A DNA stretch of 64,000 bases from Eledone cirrhosa (taxonomy: Eukaryota), in the NCBI GenBank assembly GCA_964016885.1, contig OZ024742.1, positions 176,514,001 to 176,578,000 on the forward strand. Direction: 5' to 3'. Below, piece by piece: positions 1 through 55,680 of the stretch. A model generated the notes under the pieces. It was not told the DNA's origin. It did no database searches and worked only from the letters and a program-made list of their open reading frames with translations. The translations under genes and the position numbers were made by a program. Position 1 is the first letter of the stretch. The number at the start of each line of letters is the position of its first letter.

Positions 1-731
1 TAGAAAGCATTACAATAATTCCAAAAACCAGAAAAGAAATAGAACTAGAAATATAATATGGTTTGCCCCCCCCCCCTTTCTCACTAAACATTAAAACACA
101 CATCGCTAAACTATTTTTTAATGCTCTTGACAAACGCTTCCCTAGAACACATAAGTATCACTCAATTTTCAATAGACATACCATAAAATTAACATACTCG
201 TCCACCAAAAATTTAGCACAAAATATTAATAGAATAAATAATAGGAATCTAAAACCTAGCCAAAATACCGAAAATAGCCTAAACAATATTCAAGTAAACA
301 ACTGTAACTGTAGAGATAGATCTAAATGTCCGCTAAATAACAATTGCTTAGTTAAAAATATAATATATAACTGTAATGTTAAAACTGACTTAAATTCTTT
401 TAATTATGTTGGTTCCACCTCGACAGAATTTAAACTTCGCTATAATAATCACAAGAATTCTTTCACGGATCCAAGTAAAAAATCTTCAACATCACTATCA
501 GGTTTACTCTGGCAACTTAAACATGATAACGTTGGATATTCGATGGTTTGGAATATAGTCTCAAAAGGGATTCCTTTTAATTCCTCTTCTGTGACATGTG
601 ACCTCTGCGCGGAGGAGATATTCTTTATACTAAAATCTAAAAATTCCCTTAATTTACGGACCAATTTATTCAGCTGCTGCAGACATAGATTGAACTCAAC
701 TTTTAAATATAGATATAAATTTAAAATGTAG
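1..731 (+). pseudogene. Penelope-like element, C-terminal linker plus GIY-YIG endonuclease (5' part runs off the window)
   Basis: The translation has (I)W.PPFS...FP..HKYHSIFNRHTIKLTYS, CNCR....CPL...CL, the GIY-YIG motif IIYNC...YVGSTSTEFKLRYNNHK, and CDLC..E and CCRHR. It is paralogous to 6380-7160 and 53250-54060. Confidence 0.9.
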
Positions 732-3281: not shown

Positions 3282-4292
3282 CTAGCACCAGTACCCAGCG
3301 TTGCCTGGGTAGGTAAAATAATATCTGCTTTGATGAAAAGGTGTTGATTTTAGCTACTGCTTCTCGATGACTCATCTATGGCTACTTACAGACCATGCGG
3401 GGGAGGGTAGTGATGACCTCTATCACCGAGAAACGCGTGTGACTGACGAAGGGGCATGCTGGGGGAGGGAGGTAATGACATCTAACACTAAACCAAATTT
3501 CCTCACGCTACTTGATTGGAAACCGATGAATTCTCAAATACACAGCTAAAAGTTCAGATGACGTCAGTTGCCATCGTTTTGCCTTTGACCATCTATAAGA
3601 TGTGCAATTATAGGTTCTATCGTAGTATAAAAGTTGAACAAAATAAATTGATTCATGCGTTAGGTGGAGCCGAAGTTTCGAATTTGAACGAAATCGGTTG
3701 AAAAATGTGGGAGCTAGAGCCGAAAAGGCGGAAATTTGAGTGAAAAGATGGTATTTCCGAATATTTAAGCGGCTGTCACGCCGTCCCTGAACAAAACATC
3801 CAAAATGTAAAGCCACCTTAAGACGTAAAATAATCAGATCTAGCGTAGTGTAAATTCTGAACAAAGTCGGTTGATTAATGTTGGAGCTAGAGCCAAAAAA
3901 GTGGAAATTTGAGTCTAAAAGTGGTTCATTTGAATATTTAAGCGGCTGCCCCGCCGTCTCTGAACCACAAATGCAAAACATAAAGCTATTAGAGAATGTG
4001 CAATGATAAATTCTATTTTGCTTTAAAATTTGAACGAAATCGGTGGCAAAATGGGGAAGCTAGAGCCAAAAATCTTACTTTTCGATACCTAAAAAAAGCT
4101 GATCCCCTATGGATTTTTTTCTGCAGAATGACCCCGGAATAAAAAGACCGATACATTGATATATAGAAAACACTCCCTGATGACTAATCTATGAGCCTGT
4201 AAAGTATCATGAAAATCGGTCGTAAGATATAGGCTCCTATAGGTAATACACAGACACACACACACACATACTTAATTCTATATATATACAGA
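3282..4292 (-). mobile_element. Non-autonomous Helitron
   Basis: On the minus strand: 5' TC(tgtatatatatag), 3' hairpin acccaggcaacgctgggt, then CTAG, inserted at A|T. Internal ~180-bp imperfect repeats at 3680-4072. Confidence 0.75.
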
Positions 4293-4300
4293 TATATATA

Positions 4301-5118
4301 TATAAATCAAAATGGCGAGCTGTGTTGTTGCAATGAAGTATAATGAAAAATTAGAAATTATAAGTTAGGATTATCCGTCATCGATTGTCTACTAGGCATC
4401 ATACTGTTAGCGATAAGATACCCCAGCCTAGGGCGATTCAATAACTAAAATAAGTTATTGGGATAAAAAGAAGTGGGTAGAGAAAGAGAAAGACATGTAA
4501 ACAGACACGAAGGGTGAAACAACGCAAAGAGAGGAAAATTAGGACAAATATCAAGTCAATAATTCATTTTGAACATAAGAACAGGTGTATTTTGACGAGA
4601 GAGAAAAAGACAGCGTCTTGACCGTAGCAGTGTGAGTGAGAAGAAAGACCGCGTATAGTGCTGGACGATGGAGGAAGTGAGAGAGAGGGTGAGTAGCAGA
4701 GAGTGAGTGAGTGAAAGTGCGAGGAAGAGGCTAGCCGAGAGAAGGTAACTAGCAGAGGGGGTGAGTGAAAGTAAGAGGAGGAAGGAGAGAGAGAAGGGGG
4801 AGAGAAACGGATAGCATCAATGGAAGAGAAAAAGACGGTCACAGCAAAGGGGGCAGCTTATATGAATCAAAATGGCGAGCTGTGTTGTTGCAGTTAAGTA
4901 TAATGAAAAATTCTCTTTACCTTGCTTCAACCTTCGTGTCTGTTTACATCTCTTTCTCTTTCTCAACCCACTTCTTTTTACCCCAATAACTTATTTTAGC
5001 TATTGAATCACCTTAGGCTGAGGTATCTTGTCTCTAACGCGAAGAAATACCTATGATGCTTATTAGACAACTGATGATGAATAATCCTAACTTCTAATTA
5101 CTAATTTTTCATTATATA
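4301..5118. mobile_element. ~560-bp purine/pyrimidine-skewed non-coding element with a 52-bp terminal direct repeat plus an inverted arm
   Basis: 4301-4352 recurs at 4861-4912, and 4913-5118 is the inverted copy of about 4340-4535. Homologues at 43900-44385, 45230-45790 and 48990-49610. Confidence 0.7.
5021..5077 (+). ncRNA. Hammerhead-like motif with reordered (pseudoknotted) strands
   Basis: aggta-TC-ttgtct-(10 nt)-GAAA-tacc-(13 nt)-agacaa-CTGATGA. Confidence 0.5.
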
Positions 5119-5744: not shown

Positions 5745-7160
5745 CACGGAAAACCTTAAATAAATTCAACAACCATCTCTGGACTAGAGCGGATAGAAAA
5801 AATTATTTCGATATCACCATGGGGTCATCGGTCTCGGCGCAGATAACGGATCTTGTGGGGCTATTTATTAATAATGCACTACATAGAAAACTGAGATGAC
5901 CGGTGGTTTATATCGTGATGATATGTTGCTTTTAATTGGAAATAATAGTACTTGTGAAATTAATAGTAAATGAAAATCAATAATAGACTTTTTTAATAGC
6001 TACAATCTTAAGTTAGAAATAGAGAATAACTATAATATTGTTAACTTTTTAGACGTAACATTAAACCTTAATACAGGGCTCTACTATCCATTCCATAAAA
6101 TTAATGAGAACTTAAACTATGTAAGCTTCAACTCTAATCATCCTAGATCCATTAAGAACACTATTGTAAATTATGTACAACAACGTATTTCTCGAATCTC
6201 TGCGAATAAAAACACATTTGACGATAAGGCAGAATATTATAATGAAGCTTTAATTAGAGCAGGCTATATTAATACGATTAATTACATCGACAACAGTGAT
6301 AAGGCAAATAACCCTACTATTAATTATAATTACAGTAAGAAACCTAACATAAACTCTAAAACTAACAAGAAATATAACTAGAAATATAATTTGGTATGCA
6401 CCTCCATTTTCACTAATTATTAAAACACCTTTAGCTAAACTATTTTTTTAAAGCTCTAGATAAATGTTTTCCCAAAGCCCATAGATACTACTCAATTTTT
6501 AACAGACATACAATAAAACTATCTTACTCTACTACTATAAACTTAGCACAAAATATACATAGAATCAATAATTGTTTCTACTTTTGGCACAAGGCCAGCA
6601 ATTATCCCAGAGTATTACTGGTACTTTATTTTATCGACCCCGTAAGGATGAAAGGCAAAGTTAACCTCGGCGGGAATAGAAATCTAAACCATAACCACAA
6701 TAGCACTAATACCTTTAGCAATATCCAACATAATAATACCGTTCTGAATAGCATCAACTCTGCTAAATGTAATTGTAGAATTAAATCTAACTGTCCTTTA
6801 AAAAATAAAGATGTGGTCTATAAATGCACTGTTAAAACGAATGATAATATATTTAATTATATAGGTTCAACTTCTACAGACTTCAAATCTCGTTTCAATA
6901 ATCATAAATGCTCGTTTAATAACATTGGTAAAATATCTTCAACTTCTCTATCAAACCTCATATGGAACTTAAAATCTTAAAAGAAACACTATAAAGCACC
7001 TGCCTACAGAAACAGAGCTTTATCTAGATTTTGCAAATTGTGTGTTGAGGGAATTTTCTTCATATTTAAATGTAAGGACTCTATTAATATACATATGAAT
7101 TTATTTAGTTCTTGTAAACATCGCCTAAACTCAACATTTAGAACTATATATAAAATATAA
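5745..7160 (+). pseudogene. PLE RT (YRDD type, possibly Naiad-like) plus GIY-YIG, with stops/frameshifts and a SINE insertion
   Basis: FDITMGS..SAQITDLVGLFI, GLYRDDML, VNFLDVTLNL, SNHP, CNCR...CPL, VVYKC...YIGSTS..FK.RFNNHK. Confidence 0.88.
6570..6675 (-). mobile_element. 5'-truncated tRNA-derived SINE inserted in the PLE
   Basis: Reverse complement of the family core tcccgccgaggttaactttgcctttcatccttacggggtcgataaaataaagtaccagtaat...ggccttgtgcc. Confidence 0.88.
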
Positions 7161-8386: not shown

Positions 8387-8446
8387 TTTTATCTGATGAA
8401 AGCGCACCAAGATGGCTTGGTCGCCCTTGAAATATATAGAATAAAA
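8387..8446 (+). ncRNA. Type I minimal hammerhead in the 3' pLTR; cleavage-site U mutated to G
   Basis: ttttat-CTGATGA-aagcgcaccaag..cttggtcgccctt-GAAA-tatata-GA-ataaaa. Confidence 0.75.
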
Positions 8447-12284: not shown

Positions 12285-12595
12285 TTGTTATACTTGGGGA
12301 GGGTCATATTGTTGAAATAATATTGTCAGAAACAATGACAGAACACACTCACTGTTTGGCTGGTTTTCGCTTCTGTATATTTTATATCTCCACAGTTAAT
12401 TCATTTGATCCTTAATATTTATCATTGACTGACGAACGGTTAAAAATACAGATATAAACACATACATATATAGTCTAACATAATTCTTTCGTTGCACATC
12501 TGCAACATCATCAGGGGTACTATTATGTTTCCTCCTGTTGTATTGTATGTCTACGCCAAAATGGCGATTTCATATAAAAAAACCTCGAAAACATA
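12285..12595 (-). mobile_element. Solo PLE pLTR 3' end with degenerate hammerhead
   Basis: Homologous to 24120-24450. Reverse complement has CTGATGA-t-gttgca-gatg-tgcaac-GAAA at about 12487-12514. Confidence 0.7.
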
Positions 12596-13958: not shown

Positions 13959-14806
13959 AGTGTAAAGACGTTATGGTTAATATGATGCAGTCACATTGCT
14001 TGAAATTTCGTATTTTCAAGAACGTCCTTCTAATGTAGTTTTGTGCAGTTTGTTAATTAATATGTTTATTGTATCCTTAATATTGGACAACTCATTGTGA
14101 AGATTAAATCAAAACAAAATGAAATGAAACAGATTTACTTTTCATTTGCCATCAAAACGGTAAAATATATACCGTATACCAGAGAATATATGTATTACAG
14201 GTGAAGAGTTACACTGTGTGGTTACTGAAAACGAAGGGCTAGAAGGTAAATGGGACGTAAACAAGAGAAGAAAGTAACTCTTCATCAGCTGTTTACTACA
14301 GATCAAAATGGTTCGGTGCTTAAAACAGAACATCGATCTGTAGCGCGCCCATGGCCTTTTATCCATCAAAAGGCCACGAGGGAAAGAAGTGATAGTGAAG
14401 AGAGAGGAAAAAAAAAAAAAAAGGGAAAACAGGAAAAAATGAAGTAAACATACTGATATAAGTTGGGACACAGCGCAATAGCACATATATGTAAAGTAAC
14501 CGAAGAGAAAGAGGGACAGAGAAATTAACTTTCTTCTGGGAATGAACATGTACGTGAAAATAAATTTGTCTTCCCCTTTCAATTTTTTTATTATTATTAT
14601 TTTCACTATTTGTACAAATATGCATCTTAACAATATTCGACATATTCGCAATTGACAATGCATATATTGCTGAAACCGGTACCGTAAATAAATTAATGTT
14701 TTGATATTTCATTGAAAAATCTTTTCAACATTTTCTAGTGAAAAAATCCTTTTCCTTTCTACTATTTGTTGTTATATATATCAACTCGTGTGTTACGTTT
14801 CTACAT

Positions 14807-18826: not shown

Positions 18827-21400
18827 TTAAACCAACCACCTCATTTCGCTTCTCTCGGATCGGTTATTTATTTGAGGCCCTATGCGTTTGATCCAAAGTG
18901 CGTCCTTGATTCGTAACGTGCCGACATTGCGTTCTGTCGCTAGCACTGAGACAATGGGCCTTCCGTCTTTGTTTCCGCATTTGGTTATGTGTTTCCGGAA
19001 AGACGAGGCCCTGGTGTTGATGTGATCCTTGATCCGGATGTGTAGCGGCCGGATTGTGCTACCGATATAGTAGTGGTTGCACTTGTCACATTCTACCTTA
19101 TACAGGACGCATGTGCGTAGGCAACAGTTCGTATAGTGCATCGGGCAGTTTCTGAGGGAGCACGCGTCAGTCGATTTGCTGGGTTTCCTGGAGAGGCATC
19201 TTCGCAGGGAGGGGCCCGTGTGGGCCAGTGGGATGTCGAGGCCCTCCCTCCGTATAGCCCTGCGGATAGCGTTGGTGGTATTCTCGCCCAGGTGTGGTAT
19301 TTTAAGGAAGCACTTGCCTTGGGTGTTTTTCCGCCTCTTGCGTTTGGTGTCTCTTATTCTGTTTGTAAGCGAAGCAGAGTACCCGTTCGTCTCCAGAACT
19401 TTGAGGAGTCGCTTGGTATGGGTGACACCACTTGCGGGATCGCTGCATCTGTTTTTAATTCGCGTGATCTCGTTCGTGACGTACCCTCTTTTAGCACTGT
19501 TAGGGACTTGTAGTAGACGAACAGGTCCCTGCAGGCTGATTTGCGGTAGAAATTGGTGTGGATCCCTCCCTGTTCCGTGATGTTGATTCGGAAATCGAGG
19601 AGGGCAAGTGACCCGTCTTCGCTGGGGTGTTCAACGCTGAAATCAATGTTCTCGTCCGTGTTGTTGAACGTCTCATATATTCTGCTCGCCATCTCCTGGT
19701 AAGATGTGAGGATGAGGATGTCGTCCACGTACCTTGAGAAAAAGGCGACGGCGTTGGGGCCGCAGGTGTTGAGTGTCTTGCGCTAAAGGCTGTCCATGTA
19801 TGAGATCGCTAGCACACCCGACAGACTTGAGCCCATGGGCAGTCCCGAGGTTTTCTGGTATGTTTGGTCAAGACATCCGAAGTATGTGTTGTCAACGACG
19901 ATGGATAGGAGTTGGTGGATGTCAGTGGGGATGAGCCCGAAGCAATGTAGATTGGACGCGTTCCATCAGTATATCAACGTCCGGGGGTGCTGGGACCGAG
20001 GTGTAAAGAGCGACTACATCTAGGCTGAAGGCATATCTGTTAGCCTTTCTGGTGTCGGGATCCATTTGCAGGCACTCCAATACCTCCTAGGAGCTGTTTA
20101 CGTGTCCTGGCAAGGTGTTTAGGATGGGTTTGAGTATTCTGGTTAGGATCTATGAATTTTGTAGAGCGGTCCTTCCACGTTCGACACAATGGTCTGATCT
20201 GCAGGTCGGGTCCCCTGTTTGTGTGTTTTCACAAGGTGGTAGAAGGCGGGTAGTCTGCTGTTCCTCGTGAGGAGGTTGTATCTCAGCTTCTTCAGGAACT
20301 TCCGCCGATCGCAGATGTTGGTCCAGGTGGCGTTGATGTGCTCCTCTATCTGCGCGGGAGTGATTCCGGTGACATTGGAGTAGAGGTTGTCATCGTCAAG
20401 GTGTTGGAGGGCCAGAGTGTTGTAGGCCTCTCTGCTGATGACGCAGAATTCTTTTCCTTGTCGGAGGGGCGGTAGATGAGGTTCGATTTCAGGTTGGAGA
20501 GAGTGGTGAGTTGAGATTTGGTGAGGTTGTATGTTGTGCGTGTGTGTGTGTTTTTGTGTAGAATATCCGAGATGGAGTGTTTTAACCTGATGAGTTTAGT
20601 GTCGAGTTCGTGGTCGGTGGGTGTGGAGTGGAGTGGGTTGACGATGTGGTAAGTGGGGAACTTGGGGTGGGTTGCGTGGGCGCTGTTAATTTCCGTGGCG
20701 CTGTTGATGGCGGTCACCCATTTAGGCTGGTAGGCGGCTCAACAGAAGTTGGCTTCGATGTCGTCGAGTCGTTGTGAGACGATGAACTTGGGTCCGAGGC
20801 GTAAGAGTTTCAGCTCGTCGTTCGTGAGAGTGCCGGTTAGGTCGGTGACCAGCTGCGTCGCATCGTTGAGGTGTGGATCGGTGTTGGAGGATGCGGCGGC
20901 GGCGGTTGTTACGCTGTTGTTTTCCACGTGGTTCTGGCCTGTCTCATTGTGGAGTTTAGACAATATCCACTCATATTTTCGCTTGAGCCGTTTTTTTTCG
21001 TGTTGGACTCTGGAGTGGTAGCACTGGTCGATTGCTTTAGTGATTTTAAGGAGCAAGTCGCCAGGTGTTATTGTCAGTCGATGTGTCCGCTCTGTGAGTG
21101 TCCGCTTATGCATGTGTAATTGGCGGTTGAGATGTCTCAGGATATGTTTGATACACGTGCGGTGTATGCGGCTAGTGATGTTTTGAAAAGCTGGTGTACG
21201 TAGGCATCCTGGTAAGCGGATATTCCTGATGGTGGTGGGGATGACATCGTTTTTTAGGCCACGTTTCAGGAAAATAATTTGACATAATGGCCCATTTCTC
21301 CGAGAGTCTAAACAGTTCCCTTACAGATGCAAACAATTCCTGGCTCAGGTGTAAGGATAAGAGAGTATTGAAGTTTGCTTGAAGTATTGTGGAATAATAA
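18827..21400 (-). pseudogene. Near full-length GC-rich PLE ORF (N-terminus, RT, GIY-YIG), disrupted
   Basis: LLRLGPKF, YRPSDK, SGLPMGSSLS, RYVDDIL, LALLD, VLYKVECDKCNHYYIGSTIRPLHIRIKDH. Confidence 0.9.
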
Positions 21401-21409
21401 GATATATTT

Positions 21410-22378
21410 TCTCCAACCTGAAATCGAAGAACCTCATCTACCGCCTCTCCGACAAGGGAAAATAATTCTGCGTCATCAGCAGAGAGGCCTACAAGACTCT
21501 GGCCCTCCAACACCTTGACAATGACAACCTCTACTCCAAGGCCACGGGAATCTCTCCCGCGCAAATAGAGGAGCACATCAACGCCGCCTGGACCAACATC
21601 TGCGACCGGCGGAAGCTCCCAAAGAAGCTGAGATACAACCTCCTCACGAGGAACAGCAGACTACCCGCATTCTACCACGTTGTGAAAACACACAAACAGG
21701 GACCCAACCTGAAGATCAGACCTATTGTATCGAGCGTGAAAGGATCGCTCTACAAAATTCAAGGCTTCCAGCCAGAATACTCAAACCCATCCTAGACACC
21801 TTGCTAGAACACGTAAACAGCTCCGAGGAGGTGTTGGAGCGCCTGCATCAAATGGATCCCGACACCAGAAAGGCTAACAGGTCTGCCTTCAGCCTTGATA
21901 TAGTCGCTCTTTACACCTCGGTCCCGACACTCCCGGCCGTTGATATACTGATGGAACGCGTTCAATCTACCGACCTACACTGCTTCGGGCTCACCTCCAC
22001 TGACATCCACCAACTCCTATCCATCGTCGTTGACAACAAATACTTCGGATTTCTCGACCAAACATACCAGAAAGCCTCGGGACTGCCCATGGGCTCAAGC
22101 CTGTCGGCTGTGCTAACGATCTCATACATGGACAGCCCCGAGCGCAAGGCACTCAACACCTGCCACCCCAACGCCGTAGCCTTTTTCTCAAGGTACGTGG
22201 ACGATATCCTCATCCTCACATCTTACCAAGAGATGGCGAACAGAATTTATGAGACGTTCAACAACACCTACGAGAACATTGATTTCAGTATTGAACACCC
22301 CAGCGACGACGGGTCACTTGCCCTCCTCGACTTCCGAATCAACATCACGGAACAGGGAGGGATCCACACCAACTTCTA
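21410..22378 (+). pseudogene. Inverted duplicate of the RT region of the same PLE
   Basis: Reverse complement of about 19552-20500; SLDIVALYTSVP, SGLPMGSSLS, RYVDDIL. Confidence 0.9.
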
Positions 22379-22379
22379 A

Positions 22380-24452
22380 GGTCATGGCGTTTCTAGTTTT
22401 ACAGTAGACCCATAAGAGGTAGACCCCCCACCATAACCTCAATGGCAAAAAAGACTCCCATGGGAAGGTGGATTGGGTGGACCAAAGATATACGGACCCC
22501 CCAAAACAATGATCAGGTAAGAAAAATGGTCGCACATGCAATAGGGGCTAGTATCAAAACTTCCCTAAAGGGCCACATATTTAAGTTCAACGAGAAGATC
22601 TACACCCAAAATGAGGGAGCAGCTATTGGCGTCAGCATAGCTGGTGATGTTGCCAAACTTTTCATGGTATGGTGGGAAAGGAGACTTAAAGATCTCCTTA
22701 ATGAGAGCTCCATAGACCTCATCATGTACTCTCGTTACGTAGACGATATCAATATAGAACATCCCCACTAGAGAGCACTAACAAGTTTGATTTAGAACGT
22801 AGCACAATGGGAAGCATCCAGCAGATAGCTAATTCCATACACCAGTGTATAACTGTAACTATCGACTTCCCTTCCAAACACCCTAACAATAGACTATCTG
22901 TATTAGACACGGAACTCTGGATTAAAACTATAGACGAGAGAGCCCAAATTTTCCACTCACACTGTGCTAAACCCATGGCCTCCAAATACCTGATACTAAA
23001 AAATTCAGCAATGTCCAGTAGTGCTATGTTTAATATTCTGATCGCAGATTTGGTACGAGTGATGAAGAATGTGTCCCGCATGTGCGACCCAACAGAAATG
23101 GAAAGACACATCCAACACTTCATCAACCGCATGCAGTTCTCTGGCTACAACCAAAGAGGCAGAGTCAGAGTATATGAAGGAGCCATGTAGAAGTATAAGA
23201 CCCTCATAGAACTGGACATGAAAGGAATTTACCCATTATACAGGAGCAAATCATGGAATAGCTTAGATAGGGCTAGACATAAGATAGGGAAAGCCACCTC
23301 ATGGTACGACAACCAGAGATACCAGCGTGTCATGTTTGTGGACGCTACCCATGGAGGGAAATTAGCTAACCAGTGTAGCAAGGCCCTGAGAAAGACCCAC
23401 TTAAAGATTAAGGTGGTAGAAAAGCCAGGAACCACCATAAAATCCCTGATCAGCAAAACCTACCCTTTTAAGAAAACCCACAGTACTAATAGGAAATGTA
23501 TCATATGTAAGGTAAACCCCCGGATAAACTGTAAAACTAGAAACGTAGTCTATAGCATAAGATGTACAGAGGGTACTTGCAGAAACATGACAACATCATA
23601 TATAGCCGAGACAGCTCGTAGCATAGGTGAAAGGATAGACCAACACAGGGGGGGAACTAAAAGGACGAAAAAACGGGTCAGTACTATACAAACATGCCAG
23701 ACAACACCACACGGCAAAATAGACAACAGAAATTAGAATAATATCTAAAAATAGAAATGACCCAGCAGATAGGCAATTCAGAGAGGCCAGTGAAATAGAA
23801 CATAGAAGGCCAAGACTAAACAGAAAGAATGAATGGAATAACAACAACACCCAAACAGACAACACTGACCTAAGAGAAGTATAAATAAATAAATAAATAG
23901 ATAAATAAATAAATAAATACATACACAAGCACAATAACAACAAACACATGTACACACACACTAGTAACGATAGAATACATTAACCGATACACAGTCACCC
24001 AATCACGAACACACATCAAACAAAACACTATACACACACGCAAACGCATGCGCAAAGAAGACAACATAAAATAAACAAACAAACAAATAAATAAATAAAT
24101 ATATAGACAGACTAAATAAAAATGGCGTAGACATACAATATAACGGGAGGAAACAATAGCACCACTGACGATGTTGCAGATGTGCAACGAAAGAACTTTG
24201 ATGAACTATATATATGTGTTTGTGTCTATATTGTATCTGTATTATTTTTGACCGTCGGTCAGTCAATGGCAACATTGAGGACCGAATAAATTAGATTACC
24301 GATATAAAAGACACAGAAGCGAAAAGCGAAAACCAACCAAACAGTAAGTGTGTTCTGTTATTAATTCTGGCAATATTACACAAATATGACCCTCCCCAAG
24401 TATAACAATATTGTTTCGACACACGATTTCATATAAAAAAACCTCGCAAAAC
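22380..24452 (+). mobile_element. 5'-truncated PLE of a different lineage (GAAIG RT motif) with 3' pLTR
   Basis: FKFNEKIYTQNEGAAIG, SRYVDDI, DFPSKH...LD, CIICK...CKTRNVVYSIRC...YIAETARSIGER..QH. Confidence 0.88.
24160..24203 (+). ncRNA. Type I minimal hammerhead in pLTR
   Basis: cacca-CTGACGA-t-gttgca-gatg-tgcaac-GAAA-gaac-TT-tgatg. Confidence 0.72.
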
Positions 24453-43836: not shown

Positions 43837-44279
43837 GAGAATAGAAATCTGCACTTTAAGTTACCTTAAATAGCAACTACACAGCCATTTCTATTCTCCA
43901 TATACTGTATTTCATCATATTTTTCCCTGTGACCATTCTTCTCTCCCCTTCTACCTACCTATTTCGCCACTTTCTACGTTCACCCCTCTTTCTCCCTCTC
44001 ACTTTCACCCCCTCGTCTGGCCGTTTAGCTGTTCTCTTCAGCACTTACAAATGCGGCGATCGGACGTGTGTCTTTTCCCTCGATTACTCGGTCTCGAACT
44101 TAAGTTCTTTTATCCAGTTGTCTTGGATTTCCTACCTATAGTTGCTCGCAGATTACTCGGTTTGTATTTTTTTATTCGGTGTTTTGCTATTGTTTCTCTT
44201 TTCTTTACCTTTGCTTTCCTTGCCTCCTTCCTCCGTTTTCCCAATAACTTATCCATTTATTGACGCCTTGGTGTGAAGT

Positions 44280-44335
44280 GGTATCTTGTCTTTAAAGCGT
44301 AGAAATATCCTAGACCCCCAGTAGACAACTGATGA
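44280..44335 (+). ncRNA. Reordered hammerhead-like motif, copy 2
   Basis: ggta-TC-ttgtct-(10)-GAAA-tatc-(13)-agacaa-CTGATGA, at the 3' end of the 43900-44385 element. Confidence 0.5.
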
Positions 44336-44381
44336 GGAAAACTCCCCTCCCTCGTTCTTGCTTTCTTCGTATTCCCACTGC

Positions 44382-45208: not shown

Positions 45209-46384
45209 GAAAACGTAAGAGAAATACAAACGTAAACATAAGGACAGTTCCCGCTTGTCGGCTGTCTTCTGTGGATCACTGATTTTTAGATGCATTAAAG
45301 ACAATACATCTCACCACAGTGCACTCGTAACTAAGAAAAGTAGTTATCCGGGGGAAAAAAAGGCCAACATTCACAGAGAATAACGAAGATAACGACAACA
45401 TAAAAAAAATAAAAAAGTAAGACATACAGATAGAGAAGGGGAATCACAAGACTGTAGAACATGTAAGCAGCAGTAACCAGGAGGAGAGAGGGAGATGTTA
45501 ATACAGAGACCGAACGTAAGTCCTGAACCCGAGGAGAGCGCAGTAAAAAGAAAAACGTCTGATCATAGCGAGAACAGGCGCAATGAGAAAGAGACGAAGG
45601 AAAACGGAAGTGAGAGGGGGAGGTGGTAAGGGAGCAGAGAGAGAGAGAGAGGGGCAGAAAGGAGATAGATGGTAAGAGAGAATGAGAATAAATGAGTGGG
45701 AGTGAGAAACGGAGGGAAAGAACGAGAAGGAGAGAGAAAGGTAGAAGGAAACACAACGCAAAGAAATAAACCGAATCAATTTAACAAATGACTGATTCTA
45801 CCAAAATGGAAATCACAAAGAGAGTGTATGTAAACGCACACATTTATATAAGTGAAATATTAGGCAAGTCTTACACATTTCTGGATTGAAAAAGATGAAC
45901 AATTTGAACCGCATTTAATTTCACGTTGGAACTTTCTTCAGCAATATTCATAGAGAAATAAGATATAAATATATATATATAATTATTAAGGTCACTTACT
46001 ACAACAGTACTATACGTAGGTACTTTTCGTTGAGACCAACTTGTTCAACCTGCGCCGGTGTGTGTATTTATGTTTCTATCTGTATATATGTGCGAGCGTG
46101 TGTGTGTCTGCTGGTGAACTGTATTCATGTTTTTAGTATATGGGCATATACGTCTGTGCGTTTATATGCTTGTGGGTTCATTTCTTTATAATGATGCTCG
46201 GTTTAATTATTGGAGTGTCTTTTACACGATCGCAAAATTGTCAGTTCGATTCCTGATAGAATATTTTGGGAATAGGCCACGTGCCGCCAAAATAGACATT
46301 CATGCTTTTTAAGCTTATTTTACCGGTAAACTCTAAAGGGACGCAACTCTAACCGGGACCCCGGAAGTTTATTTTACCACTAAA

Positions 46385-48816: not shown

Positions 48817-49009
48817 CGTATATACATATATACAAATATATATATATATATATATTGGTAAACGGAAAAGAAAATGCTGACAATTTGTTCCCAGTGAAAA
48901 ATAGTTTAATTACGAATAAGTGAAAATTAGTAATAGTATTGGTTAGTATTCAATTTTGGTTTTAAGTTTTACCGGTTGCGCATATATATATATGAATAAA
49001 TTTAGTCCT

Positions 49010-49066
49010 TCCTCAGTGATCTTCCACCTTTCATTGGTATTTCTTCGCTTTAAAGACCATATACCT
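49010..49066 (-). ncRNA. Reordered hammerhead-like motif, copy 3
   Basis: Reverse complement: ggta-TA-tggtct-(10)-GAAA-tacc-(13)-agatca-CTGAGGA. Confidence 0.5.
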
Positions 49067-49631
49067 CTGGTTGGTTCGAGCAACGACTAAAGAAGTCGTT
49101 GGGACACGTAAAAGAGGGGAACGAGCGAGACTGTAAACAATCAAAGATGGTAATGCAACGAAAAGTGAGGAAGAAGGAGTCAAGTCCCAGAAATCGATGA
49201 ATATAAGTTATGGGAAATAGTGGACGAGAGAGAATAAAGACCATCCAACCTGGTCGAAATGTGAGCAAGGAAAGAATTTCGCACAGGTTAAACGGGAGGA
49301 AGAAGGAGTCAAGTCCCTGAAATCGGTGAACATAAGTTCTGTGAAATCGTAGACGAGAGAGAATAAAAAACAACCGGCCTGATCAAAGTGTGCCTGAGGA
49401 AAGAATTTCGCACAGATCAAACGGGAGGAAGTAGGAGAGGGAGTAGCAGAGAGTGAATGAATGAAAGGTGAGGAAGAGGCTAACAGAGAGAGTGACTGTT
49501 AGAGGGGGTAAAGGGGAGTGAGAGATACAGAGAAAAGAGGAAGCAGTAAGAAAGAAACAGACGGGTCACAGCGGAGGAAAAAAATATATATGTGAATATG
49601 AAATGGCGTATATAAATATATATATATATAT

Positions 49632-49764
49632 TTTTAATATAGATGAGATTCTACAGGACTAGAACTGTTTCATTCTTTAGCAATCATCAGGAATGCTAAT
49701 GATTCCTGATGATTTCTAAAGAATGAAACAGTTCTAGTCCTGTAGAATCTCATCTATATTAAAA
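49632..49764. mobile_element. Near-perfect 133-bp palindrome of two opposed hammerheads
   Basis: gattc-CTGATGA-tttctaaagaat-GAAA-cag-ttctagtc-ctg-TA-gaatc at 49701-49749 (+), mirrored at 49647-49694 (-). Confidence 0.8.
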
Positions 49765-50332
49765 CTGTTATACTCTGCAATGTATTGAGTACCTTACTTA
49801 CTGTGGTTACCTCCGACTCAATCCGGAATAACGTATATATATATATATATATGTATATGACAATTGCCACTTCTATACAGAAGAGGGCCATCTCTTCAAC
49901 GTTGTGCTGAACGTCTATGAGCCCAGAGTTGACTCCGCAAACCTGCATCGCTCCTGCATACTGTTTTACAGATGTGGCTCACGAGGACAGTCCCGAAGGT
50001 AGCTTTCTCCTTATGCACAATAGCAGACCTAGTGGCTTTGTTGCAAAACTGAAACAAATACACCGTGGACCTGTCCAGGACAACAACATAATTTGTCCCA
50101 TACTGCTGATTATTGTGAACTTTAGAATGACTAGCTAGAGAAATAACTTGGTCGTTCTGACTGCTGCTAGTTATAGCGGTAGCCGACTGACCTCCTTGCC
50201 TCTGCCTCTATCTTTGCACTCGGCCCTTGAAAAAATTGATTCCACTTCATTTACTCTCATCTCGGGAACAGTTTTGGATAGCACTAGTTCGTAATTTAAA
50301 TTCAAGAATTTTATATTCTTTGAATGAAAAGA

Positions 50333-51203: not shown

Positions 51204-51271
<68 letters not shown>

Positions 51272-51273
<2 letters not shown>

Positions 51274-51441
51274 TAGTTCCACAATAGGTAATTCACCATT
51301 TCTGAGAACAATTTGTTTCACCTAAGACGTATCATCAGTTCGATTTTAATTAGATTATACGAATTAAACTGAGCTGATGATCCACCTTACGTGAAACAAA
51401 TTATTCTCGGTATTGGTGAATTAAATCTTGTGGAACTACTT
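51272..51441. mobile_element. Fold-back element with opposed hammerheads
   Basis: ctgag-CTGATGA-tccaccttacgt-GAAA-caaatta-TT-ctcgg at 51369-51410 (+), mirrored at about 51302-51342 (-). Confidence 0.7.
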
Positions 51442-53249: not shown

Positions 53250-55680
53250 TACTTACAGCTAGATTTAAAGTTATGGAACGAGTGTCGGTACCGGTGTTGG
53301 CACGAGGAAAATGTCTCTCACTTTCTATTAAGGAGGTCTACATTCGAAAAGATTATAGTATGGGTCCCCAGAAAGCAGAGATTACATAATTTATTCGGTG
53401 GTTTATACGATGAGGTTCTACCTATTACTTTCTATTGCAGTGTAAATGGTCTATTCCTAGTTTTCAGAGAGTGTATATAGGTAGATAAAGAAGTGGAGCT
53501 GGCTAGATTGTGTTTTTTGAAAGAGTAGAGGTGCGAGTTGTATCTCGTCTTGAAGTTGTTCGAAGTAGAACCTATATATGTTTTAGAACAGTTGTTTGCG
53601 TTGACGGTGCATGAGTAGATTATGTATTTGGTTAAGCAATTATTACCTAAGTGGCAAGTTCTATTAGTTCTACAGTTACATTTATTCTGGGTGTTAGCTT
53701 GCCGGTTTCTATGTTGTGAAGAATTCTGGTTGCTAGGGGTAGTATTAGGGTAATGATGCCTATCATTCGTATCGTTATTGATTTCATTAGTGCTATTATC
53801 ATTATCACCTTTATTACTACCATTGTTTACAGGTGCTAAGTTTACCCCCTGTTGTGTTTTAATTAGTTGGAAATAGCTATTAATCTTCCTTTTATTACTA
53901 CTAGCTATATGGTATGCTATGTTAGGTGTGGTGGAGTACGATATTTTAATTGTATTTTTATTGATAAGGCTATGATACTTGTGGCCGGTTGGGAAGTTTT
54001 TTTCTAAGATTGAGAAGAAAGCCTTAGGCAAGTTGGTAGAGACGTTTAGATTGAGAGGGGGTTTGAATAATGTATTAGTTCTCTTTCTATCTTTGTTTAT
54101 ATTATTGTTTCTTTATGTATTTATATTCATGTTTGTATTATTATTGTGGTGTTTACTTTGATGCGAGTTAAATGTGGTATCGGTCTTCTTCTTAGAGTTA
54201 TAGGGGCTATTGATTTTACTATCTTTCCTCATGGCCATATTATGAGAAATAATGTTGTAACTATGTGATTTTATAGGTAGGAATTCAATCTCATTCTTAT
54301 GTCCTGATTTAGCTAAGGCCTCATTATAGAATTGTGAATTATTGTTGAATATAGTTTCATTATATTATAGATTAGAGATTCTATCATATATTCCTTTGGT
54401 AATGGAGTTTAATATGGATTTAGGGTGCTTAGATTTGGTGTTCACATAAATTAGTTTTTCGTTAGGTTTATGATAGGGTGTGTATACTGTAGAGTCTAGG
54501 CTCAGGGTAGCGTCAAGGAAGTTGACGTTTTTAGTGTTTTTATCTAAGTTGATACTTAAGTTGTAGTTTTTGAAAATGTTGTGTAACTGTTTCCTAGTTT
54601 TCTCTATATTTAATTTGTTATAGTCTATAAGAAGAAGCGCATCATCGCGGTATAAACCACCGTTGAGGTAGGGTAGGTTCTTGTGGATTTCATTAAGTAG
54701 GTATAATCCCACCAAATCGGTGACCTGCGCCGAGTCACTAGGTCCGATGGTTATGTCAAAGTTGTTATGCTTATCCTTCCGGGTCGATAATTGATCTTCA
54801 AAAGAAATTATGGTTTTTGGGCCGCAAGTATGACATCAATTTGGGATCTAGTCATGTCACTATTGCTCATGGCCATAATTAGAGCCTTATTTAATATGAT
54901 AGGGGAATAGAGGTGTAGTATGAATTGATATCAAATTGTATACATTTTTTTATTTTTAAACTCTTTAATACACTTGAACCATTCAATAACCTCACCCGTA
55001 TTTCCCCATTCGTTAAGGTCAATTTTGTGCTTAAATTGTGGGATGATTTTATCTATTTTCTTGCTGATAATACCAATGTCAGACTTGGAAGGGCAAATAA
55101 GTCTAATTGAAGGGTTACTAATGAAGTCTTCCTTATGGTCTTTCAGTGAGAATCATGGGGAATTAGGGGTGTATGGGTGTGTATGTCTCTGAAGTCCTAA
55201 TTTACTCACTATATTACGGCCTTCAATATTTATATCTTCCAGGTTTTTACTAGTAGTTTTCTTGTAGCTCTTATGCAGTTCCTTATATATACATTTTTTA
55301 TAAGTATCGTAATCTAAGCTATATATTTTATTAGTTTTATCTGCATGCACTAGGACTTTTCTATTTTTATTAAATCCTTTAATAGTGGATTTAAGGTAGT
55401 TTTTGTGTATGTTATGTTCTTAACTAGTTTAATTAGATCATCTTTAAATGAGTTTAATAATGTGTTGTGGGGAGGGCTTTTAATTGTTTTAAAGCCGTAA
55501 TTGTCGAAGTTGTTCGTATCCCCGTATTTGTCTGGGCGCTTTCTATTGTAATGGAATTTGCTCCATCTCACTCTATTGATAAAAGAGTTGACATTATTGA
55601 TCAATAATTGTTCGTTTATATCCTTGGGTGGTTTGGTATGTTCTTAGTAGACATAGCAAGGTGATCTTTGATAAGCATAC
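53250..55680 (-). pseudogene. PLE RT (YRDD type) plus GIY-YIG ORF, disrupted
   Basis: HADKTNKIY, VGLYLL..GGLYRDDALL, VNFLDATL, KCNCR...C.L...CL...IIYSC...YIGSTSNNFKTRYNSH. Confidence 0.9.

Follow-up and report, generated by a model that had tools for sequence, protein, structure and literature searches.

The question raised by this locus is whether a repeated sequence block in the 64,000-nucleotide stretch of Eledone cirrhosa DNA analysed here (the window) encodes a self-cleaving RNA and, if so, with which architecture and within which kind of element. A sequence-only reading had described a hammerhead-like core with its strands in a non-circular, pseudoknotted order at four places, and this description is borne out, as a knotted RNA fold bearing the full hammerhead core in scrambled order ends tens of thousands of repeat copies. 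The strand order itself, regarded in that reading as a new topology (CBA), is that of the published and experimentally validated type-SGC hammerhead (PMC10085705). With a probability of roughly 0.78, the locus is best explained as a hammerhead fold of type-SGC order with a rebuilt helix II region, predicted from its sequence to self-cleave after the NUH triplet and forming the 3' end of non-autonomous repeats which likely stem from Naiad-type Penelope-like elements (PLEs). The retroelement context and the link to Naiads, both overlooked in the sequence-only reading, carry most of the interest.

A genome-wide BLAST collection, as had been proposed along with the original description, was run against the 3.0-Gb genome, with the best 40 of 932, 1970, 3221 and 513 candidates being scored for the copies c1, c2, c3 and c4, respectively, and 30, 20, 20 and 20 loci being aligned per family; each of the four copies belongs to a repeat family (F1 to F4). 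An exact search of the genome with the pattern GAAA-N7-GA-N14-CTGANGA gave 25,677 matches versus 347 for the reversed control pattern, and one of the first 30 pattern loci seemed to be a chance match. A strict helix descriptor gave 132 matches in 0.99 Mb of fetched, motif-enriched DNA and none in the same DNA reversed, a covariance model detected five copies in 280 kb of DNA chosen regardless of the motif, and 3,842 exact genomic matches were counted for a single F3 anchor. The motif is genuine and occurs far above chance. An Rfam scan of the window gave no match at the motif and no hammerhead among the 150 of 157 matches listed, nearly all of which were microsatellite hits to miRNA models. 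A pattern scan of metagenomes yielded 23 loci, none with the helices and with a best model score of 25 bits, which were read as chance matches, and the viral contigs scanned for the motif contained none. More diverged families of the fold were noticed at L097:1429-1544 (+), L151:4128-4229 (+), L067:1267-1361 (+) and L020:1049-1167 (+), in some of which the hairpin PA is apparently lost or reduced.

With the covariance model, the window contains six motif copies in total (Table 1). The blocks are present at all four places initially named, with c4 being decayed as claimed, yet F4 as a family retains GAAA and C(C/U)GANGA; CUGANGA and GAAA are intact in c2 and c3 as in c1. The c1 copy shows breaks in P0, PA, PB and PC and is probably damaged. 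For c1 to c3, the NUH triplets, the 10-nt and 13-nt spacings and helices I and III are as described in the sequence-only reading. The 13-nt linkers, however, which had been called unrelated, make up the 3' side of a kink-turn together with that of a further helix (PC), and in place of the claimed 57 nt the real fold comprises about 110 nt, beginning about 45 nt upstream of the assumed start.

Table 1. Motif copies in the window and parts of the fold in copy c1, given as window positions.
Feature	Position	Strand	Remarks
c1 (family F1), core	5021-5077	+	CUGANGA and GAAA intact
c2 (family F2), whole fold	44231-44345	+	Core 44280-44335; 81 bits, covariance model; predicted cut after 44285
c3 (family F3), whole fold	49000-49112	-	Core 49010-49066; 105.6 bits, covariance model; predicted cut after A49060
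c4 (family F4), whole fold	45245-45361	-	Core 45255-45310, decayed; 74.5 bits, covariance model
Extra decayed copy, internally deleted	4368-4471	-	Found by covariance model; in the inverted partner unit of the c1 element
Extra decayed copy, L153-like family	14272-14390	-	Found by covariance model; plain 3-nt bulge in place of kink-turn
Inverted partner unit of the c1 element	4281-4908	-	Carries the internally deleted copy 4368-4471
P0, 5' strand	4978-4983	+	Pairs with 5079-5084 and closes the entire fold; 77.6% of cells paired; two-sided change in 3/4 pairs
PA hairpin	4984-5005	+	Right after P0; 7 bp, 8-nt loop; 92.6% paired; two-sided change in 5/7 pairs; also found by RNAalifold
PB, 5' strand	5008-5011	+	Pairs with 5039-5042 just 5' of GAAA; 95.7% paired; two-sided change in 2/4 pairs
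PC, 5' strand, and kink-turn short strand	5013-5021	+	PC 5013-5018, short strand 5019-5021; PC 91.4% paired; 13 independent compensatory events
Block S	5022-5033	+	Helix III 5' strand 5022-5026; unpaired C17 5027; helix I strand 5028-5033
Linker, PB 3' strand and block G	5034-5051	+	yUAAn linker 5034-5038; PB 3' strand 5039-5042; position 11.1 5043; GAA 5044-5046 (block G); helix III 3' strand 5047-5051
Kink-turn bulge (3 nt), tandem GA, PC 3' strand	5052-5063	+	The 13-nt linker of the sequence-only reading
Block C	5065-5084	+	Helix I strand 5065-5070; CUGAUGA 5071-5077; position 10.1 5078; P0 3' strand 5079-5084

From 5' to 3', the fold runs through P0, hairpin PA, PB, PC, the short strand of the kink-turn, helix III, position 17 and helix I, followed by the yUAAn linker, PB', GAAA, helix III', a 3-nt bulge plus GA, PC', helix I', CUGANGA and P0', with the cut site predicted between 5027 and 5028 in c1. 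The core is framed by helices I and III in the usual hammerhead manner, and P0, PA and PB meet at the position of helix II. The lack of a Watson-Crick helix II, conceded in the original description, is real, as the 10.1-11.1 pair, the only one left, is held in 20/29 rows of the alignment described below and fails in 9/29; this gap is explained by the three further helices which had been overlooked. Helix II is shrunk to 0-1 bp and opens into the junction of P0, PA and PB, where the strands after A9 and before G12 each pair with an upstream segment and not with each other; P0 or PB runs directly up to the core in families F2 and L153. The PB pseudoknot, showing one break in c1, likely takes over the role of helix II. 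Helix III continues past a kink-turn or bulge, predicted to bend it, and returns by way of the fourth helix, PC. A kink-turn consists of a canonical stem, a 3-nt bulge, tandem G-A/A-G pairs and a second stem, and its sequence pattern is present in most rows (2n G in 23/29, 1n A in 27/29, missing in two rows), from which the bending is predicted; in the L153 family the kink-turn is absent. The pairing figure for P0 (Table 1) is lowered by register shifts in some rows, and in c1 this helix has one decayed pair.

For the covariation analysis, 168 candidate copies were clustered and represented by 15 cluster medoids plus 16 singletons (31 in total), with 21 other singletons being discarded as chance matches, truncated copies or near-duplicates, and after removal of two decayed rows the remaining 29 were aligned by MAFFT without regard to structure. 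Seven helices were evaluated; the structure was derived from the same families, so that the control with slid partners favours it. Of 951 cells, 90.2% are paired, compared to 75.6% in shuffles and 31-44% with slid partners. Two-sided changes occur in 25/33 pairs, a value reached by none of 500 shuffles, and the count of further pair types was reached by 12/500. The claimed covariation of helices I and III is confirmed, with two-sided changes in 6/6 pairs of helix I (91.4% of cells paired) and 3/5 pairs of helix III. A tree-aware count, based on one Fitch resolution, gives 31 independent compensatory events (PC 13, PA 6, I 5, P0 2, PB 2, the 10.1-11.1 pair 2 and III 1), corresponding to 0.94 per proposed pair versus 0.033 for 5,876 other column pairs. 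By MI-APC, the proposed pairs are 10 of the top 25 among 6,216 column pairs, and RNAalifold, which cannot draw pseudoknots, recovered PA and PC alone (11 pairs). The structure is almost certainly under selection.

In the F1 to F3 family majorities from the BLAST-collected copies, C3, U4, G5, A6, N7, G8 and A9 as well as G12, A13, A14 and A15.1 are intact, and U4C is frequent in F4 and found in 3/29 rows of the alignment, in which the invariance of GAAA, CUGANGA and TAA is partly by construction, as the copies were collected with a pattern demanding these three. No such demand was made for U16.1, position 17 or the kink-turn short strand, and here too the hammerhead and kink-turn rules hold: U16.1 is present in 28/29 rows, N7 is variable and position 17 (A in 15, C in 12 and U in 2 rows, the latter being misaligned by MAFFT and appearing as G in the column count) is never truly G. 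Between helices III and I lies an NUH triplet with U16.1-A15.1. In an independent F3 sample of 75 copies anchored at their 3' ends (from 100, of which 78 were long enough and three fell below the identity filter), TAA and GAAA show at most two differences at any position, and variants present in at least five copies avoid GAAA, NUH, the G-A pairs of the kink-turn and the linker. Two common F3 variants, in 9/75 and 11/75 copies, break PC pairs.

Motif copies stop in (TA)n, 20-70 nt past CUGANGA, and have lost varying lengths of their 5' part, with upstream homology being gone at about 500-690 nt. F3 forms head-to-tail arrays of monomers of about 635 nt with one hammerhead each, and a sister subfamily consists of tandem, non-coding units of 654-706 nt; this corresponds to non-LTR retrozymes, whose non-coding monomers are arranged in tandem and carry a single hammerhead. 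Copies were seen to have an inverted unit at the 5' side and to end in (TA)n, c1 being the inverted partner of the unit at 4281-4908. The end of this F1 element (window 4281-4300) reads CGCCATTTT, which resembles a YY1 site, on the strand opposite to the one carrying it in L1. No ORF was seen in the repeat units read. Naiad-type (TA)n insertion, tandem and inverted units and the 3' tail are present, traits common to other PLE clades, and in the units read, the single ORF defining a Naiad PLE (N-terminal GIY-YIG, CxC and DKA motifs, RT) was not seen. The units are likely non-autonomous derivatives and are not filed as Naiads.

In searching for an autonomous partner, two short Naiad_Ovul-type motifs and one Naiad RT motif gave no genome match. 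A GIY-YIG search of the genome resulted in 150 matches, of which 50 were examined; the motif was found at none of 30 short loci and at 4/20 long ones, which is about background, in no case contiguous with an ORF. The long ORFs seen at these loci have the endonuclease C-terminal, and Neptune- or Hydra-like elements are present in the genome. Failure to find an autonomous partner fits the description of cephalopod Naiads as old remnants (Craig 2021, PMC8557442).

Other PLE traces were noticed as well. Broken Penelope-like RT/GIY-YIG ORFs of several clades, including Hydra-like ones, lie at window positions 57-731, 5974-6980, 18827-23736 and 53432-54835, none linked to the motif. PLE ORFs of up to 1096 aa with C-terminal endonuclease occur at L336-L351; several of these loci have very long microsatellite-rich 3' regions without a hammerhead in the first 700 nt, and others have a type I hammerhead. 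Minimal type I Penelope hammerheads at 1599 (+), 5219 (-) and 62963 (-) passed the descriptor, with similar ones at 8393 (+), 59598 (-) and 61043 (-), and the 150 of 157 Rfam matches listed do not include the type I hammerheads of the window. Repeats with CUGANGA, a hairpin and GAAA after a AAAATGGCG-type motif are located at 12514 (-), 24165 (+), 44916 (+), 32952 (-) and 34111 (+), some with an extra base after A9, and are likely other PLE hammerhead variants. Long near-perfect inverted repeats at 49620-49775 and 51270-51440 bear CUGAUGA on both strands of each.

Craig 2021 (PMC8557442) reports (TA)n targets and tandem and inverted structures for Naiads, which are described as devoid of canonical hammerheads, some having a core that fits no descriptor; in the metadata, HHR_core or HHR_half_core matches in 17 Naiads are left unexplained. 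The present fold offers a simple and direct way of testing this gap. File S5 of that work holds 54 Naiad consensus sequences, of which 53 were inspected by eye over their 3'-terminal 260-330 bases and, in part, over longer passages, without a program, and all following assignments are to be read as such. Complete P0/PA/PB/PC with S-G-C order is visible at 7/53 3' ends (Obim, Ovul, Amil, Aacu, Anas, Naiad-3_Chem and Naiad-2_Movir), with octopus, coral, hydrozoan and box-jellyfish as hosts and the three Acropora Naiads (Amil, Aacu, Anas) being near-identical to each other. The octopus Naiads Obim and Ovul agree with family F1 in the kink-turn, in the N7/N14 spacing and in a PA loop of 8 nt; the cnidarian Naiads have a 5-7-nt bulge or a hairpin in place of the kink-turn, and the UUAAU linker is kept in Acropora and Movir-2. 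In Esco and Bfor the S-G-C core is accompanied by some of the peripheral elements (helix I of Bfor has only 2 bp), and in Smim and Ptep S-G-C order is combined with other peripheries. The nematode Naiads Nbra-1, -2, -3, Hcon, Hpol and Asuum and one further passage, probably from Pristionchus, display type C-S-G, in which helices I, II and III are all cleanly formed; in the six named consensus sequences an extra long helix flanks block C. In total, permuted hammerheads (SGC or CSG) are visible in 18/53 Naiads, and 9 of the 17 HHR_core/half_core Naiads resolve into one of the two folds. In four Darwinula Naiads, GAAA precedes CUGANGA and block S was not placed, and no hammerhead was seen in the 3' part of the other 31 Naiads. 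A different conserved, helix-rich motif without CUGANGA lies near the 3' end of the bivalve and hemichordate Naiads CGi, Sglo, Olur, Tgra, Pmar, Skow-1, Skow-2, Pfla-1 and Pfla-2, at the place of the hammerhead in other Naiads, and might represent a further self-cleaving RNA, perhaps of an unknown kind.

From these comparisons, the fold is likely the ribozyme that Naiads were reported to lack. It seems fairly probable that permuted hammerheads are standard in large parts of the Naiad clade (cnidarians and cephalopods having junction-type SGC, a ctenophore and spiders other SGC forms, and nematodes CSG) and hence among the most abundant animal ribozymes, with the fold of the window being active without a true helix II and held by a four-way junction and kink-turn.

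In the hammerhead reaction, the 2'-OH at position 17 attacks, with G12 serving as base and G8 as acid. In the present fold, PB would stack on the core in place of helix II and P0 on PA, and the 5-nt yUAAn linker would tie PB to the far end of helix I, thereby replacing the loop I-loop II contact. The bend would turn PC back, so that 1-nt links may reach both helix I and PB, and the linker and the bent helix III would hold these two side by side. Each unit of a tandem transcript would cut at its own ribozyme to give RNAs starting at the cut, i.e., unit-length templates, which a Penelope-type RT/endonuclease supplied in trans might copy into (TA)n sites, as proposed for retrozymes.

Such templates bear on the 5' ends of the copies, which were mapped for 100 listed F3 copies relative to an anchor at the end of helix I, with the predicted site 42 nt upstream. 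By distance, 18 ends fall at 0-46, four at 47-107, 60 at 108-600 and 18 beyond, corresponding to rates per 1000 nt of 4.15 (0-46), 0.83 (47-107), 2.41 (108-300) and 3.16 (301-600); the excess at 0-46 is significant against the next 61 nt (p=0.001) and less so against the whole unit (p=0.033). Among the 18 near ends, two lie no more than 4 nt away from the site, and about five stem from internal deletions. An earlier survey (93/97 copies scored) pointed in the same direction, biased by its anchor. The step at the site lends weak support to a template starting there; stalling on structure would look alike.

Points against the preferred explanation are the helix II of at most one pair, the weak 5'-end excess, the PC-breaking F3 variants, the single event in helix III, the failure to find a Naiad ORF in the searches of this genome, a Naiad link read by eye from a published file and the absence of the kink-turn in the L153 family and the cnidarian Naiads. 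An unlikely but compatible reading is that of a hammerhead-derived fold which cleaves poorly or not alone, being retained as a signal by which the RT binds or primes, or depending for its folding on a host protein, e.g., a kink-turn binder. Hammerheads with helix II deletions are slow, and here helix II has just 0-1 bp, U4C is frequent in F4 and found in three of the 29 rows, insertions retain an uncut ribozyme at the 3' end and the 5'-end signal is weak. Low activity in vitro has also been reported for minimal PLE hammerheads (PMC4209133). However, diverged families have preserved the core nucleotides and obey the NUH rule, as do, by eye, Naiads from several phyla, and a binding signal would have no need for position 17 to avoid G.

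Even less probable is action solely as a dimer or strand-swapped multimer, as in many minimal Penelope hammerheads. PLE hammerheads are described as dimeric (PMC4209133), tandem arrays space the units about 635 nt apart and the monomer needs two pseudoknots, but dimer action, considered in the sequence-only reading, is probably not required, as all helices form inside one unit. All seven also covary within one unit, helix III has 5 bp plus PC and is not a short dimer-forcing palindromic stem, and monomeric SGC ribozymes cleave (PMC10085705, main text). SECIS elements with a GA quartet occur in some Naiads (PMC8557442). The resemblance of CUGAUGA to box C and the inflation of covariation counts by related copies might further be invoked for a chance likeness, a SECIS element or a box C/D motif, readings of very low probability that are largely refuted by the 25,677 versus 347 matches, the covariation and the tree-aware events still favouring the helices about 28-fold, as well as by a variable N7 and by the absence of any SECIS or box C/D family among the 150 of 157 Rfam matches listed. 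In the SECIS consensus, moreover, the AUGA and GA strands are in the order opposite to that of the present fold.

If the self-cleavage reading is true, non-circular RNA permutations move from environmental sequence to animal genomes, at high copy number and in named hosts, with a phylogeny being available for tracing their origin, and type CSG, so far backed by two similar sequences, gains several new natural examples. Helix II, which hammerhead descriptors hold fixed, may be replaceable by a junction, and ribozyme counts in animal genomes are therefore likely too low.

Among known systems, the PLE hammerheads of Cervera and de la Pena 2014 (PMC4209133) share the site in the terminal repeat of the element and the tandem and inverted copies, and differ in being of type I with circular order C-G-S, a long helix II, a minimal helix III and dimeric action. 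Non-LTR retrozymes, proposed to be non-autonomous PLE derivatives, likewise consist of non-coding tandem monomers with one hammerhead each, whereas the non-circular permutation belongs to the fold of the window; that preprint does not mention SGC, octopus, cephalopod or kink (bioRxiv 10.64898/2026.07.22.740005). Naiad PLEs have the (TA)n target, the tandem/inverted structure and, by eye, the fold at the 3' end of seven consensus sequences in common with the present families, but bear an ORF, none being seen in the latter (PMC8557442). In a literature search, with most subscription papers outside its coverage, no work was found that assigns SGC or CSG hammerheads to animals or to Naiads. The permutation as such is known from Eckert 2023. 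The same search, which covered Eckert 2023 by its main text, gave no precedent for a junction replacing helix II, for a bent helix III, for an animal retroelement as host or for the likely solution to the Naiad ribozyme question, and these features are likely new. This main text (PMC10085705), in which neither "kink" nor "transpos" is mentioned, names six block orders, of which SGC and CSG, found in metatranscriptomes and metagenomes, are validated, with natural S-G-C examples cleaving. Type-SGC HRIMA-1 from this work shares with the present fold the S-G-C order, the full core and a short linker connecting helix I with the strand that precedes GAAA. Type SGC there has, however, a real helix II and an interaction helix joining I and II, and the present fold has neither, with P0, PA, PB and PC instead, which may be why descriptors missed it. 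The fold of the window is predicted to work like an SGC ribozyme and is not a member of HRIMA-1, its host being an animal retroelement present in tens of thousands of copies.
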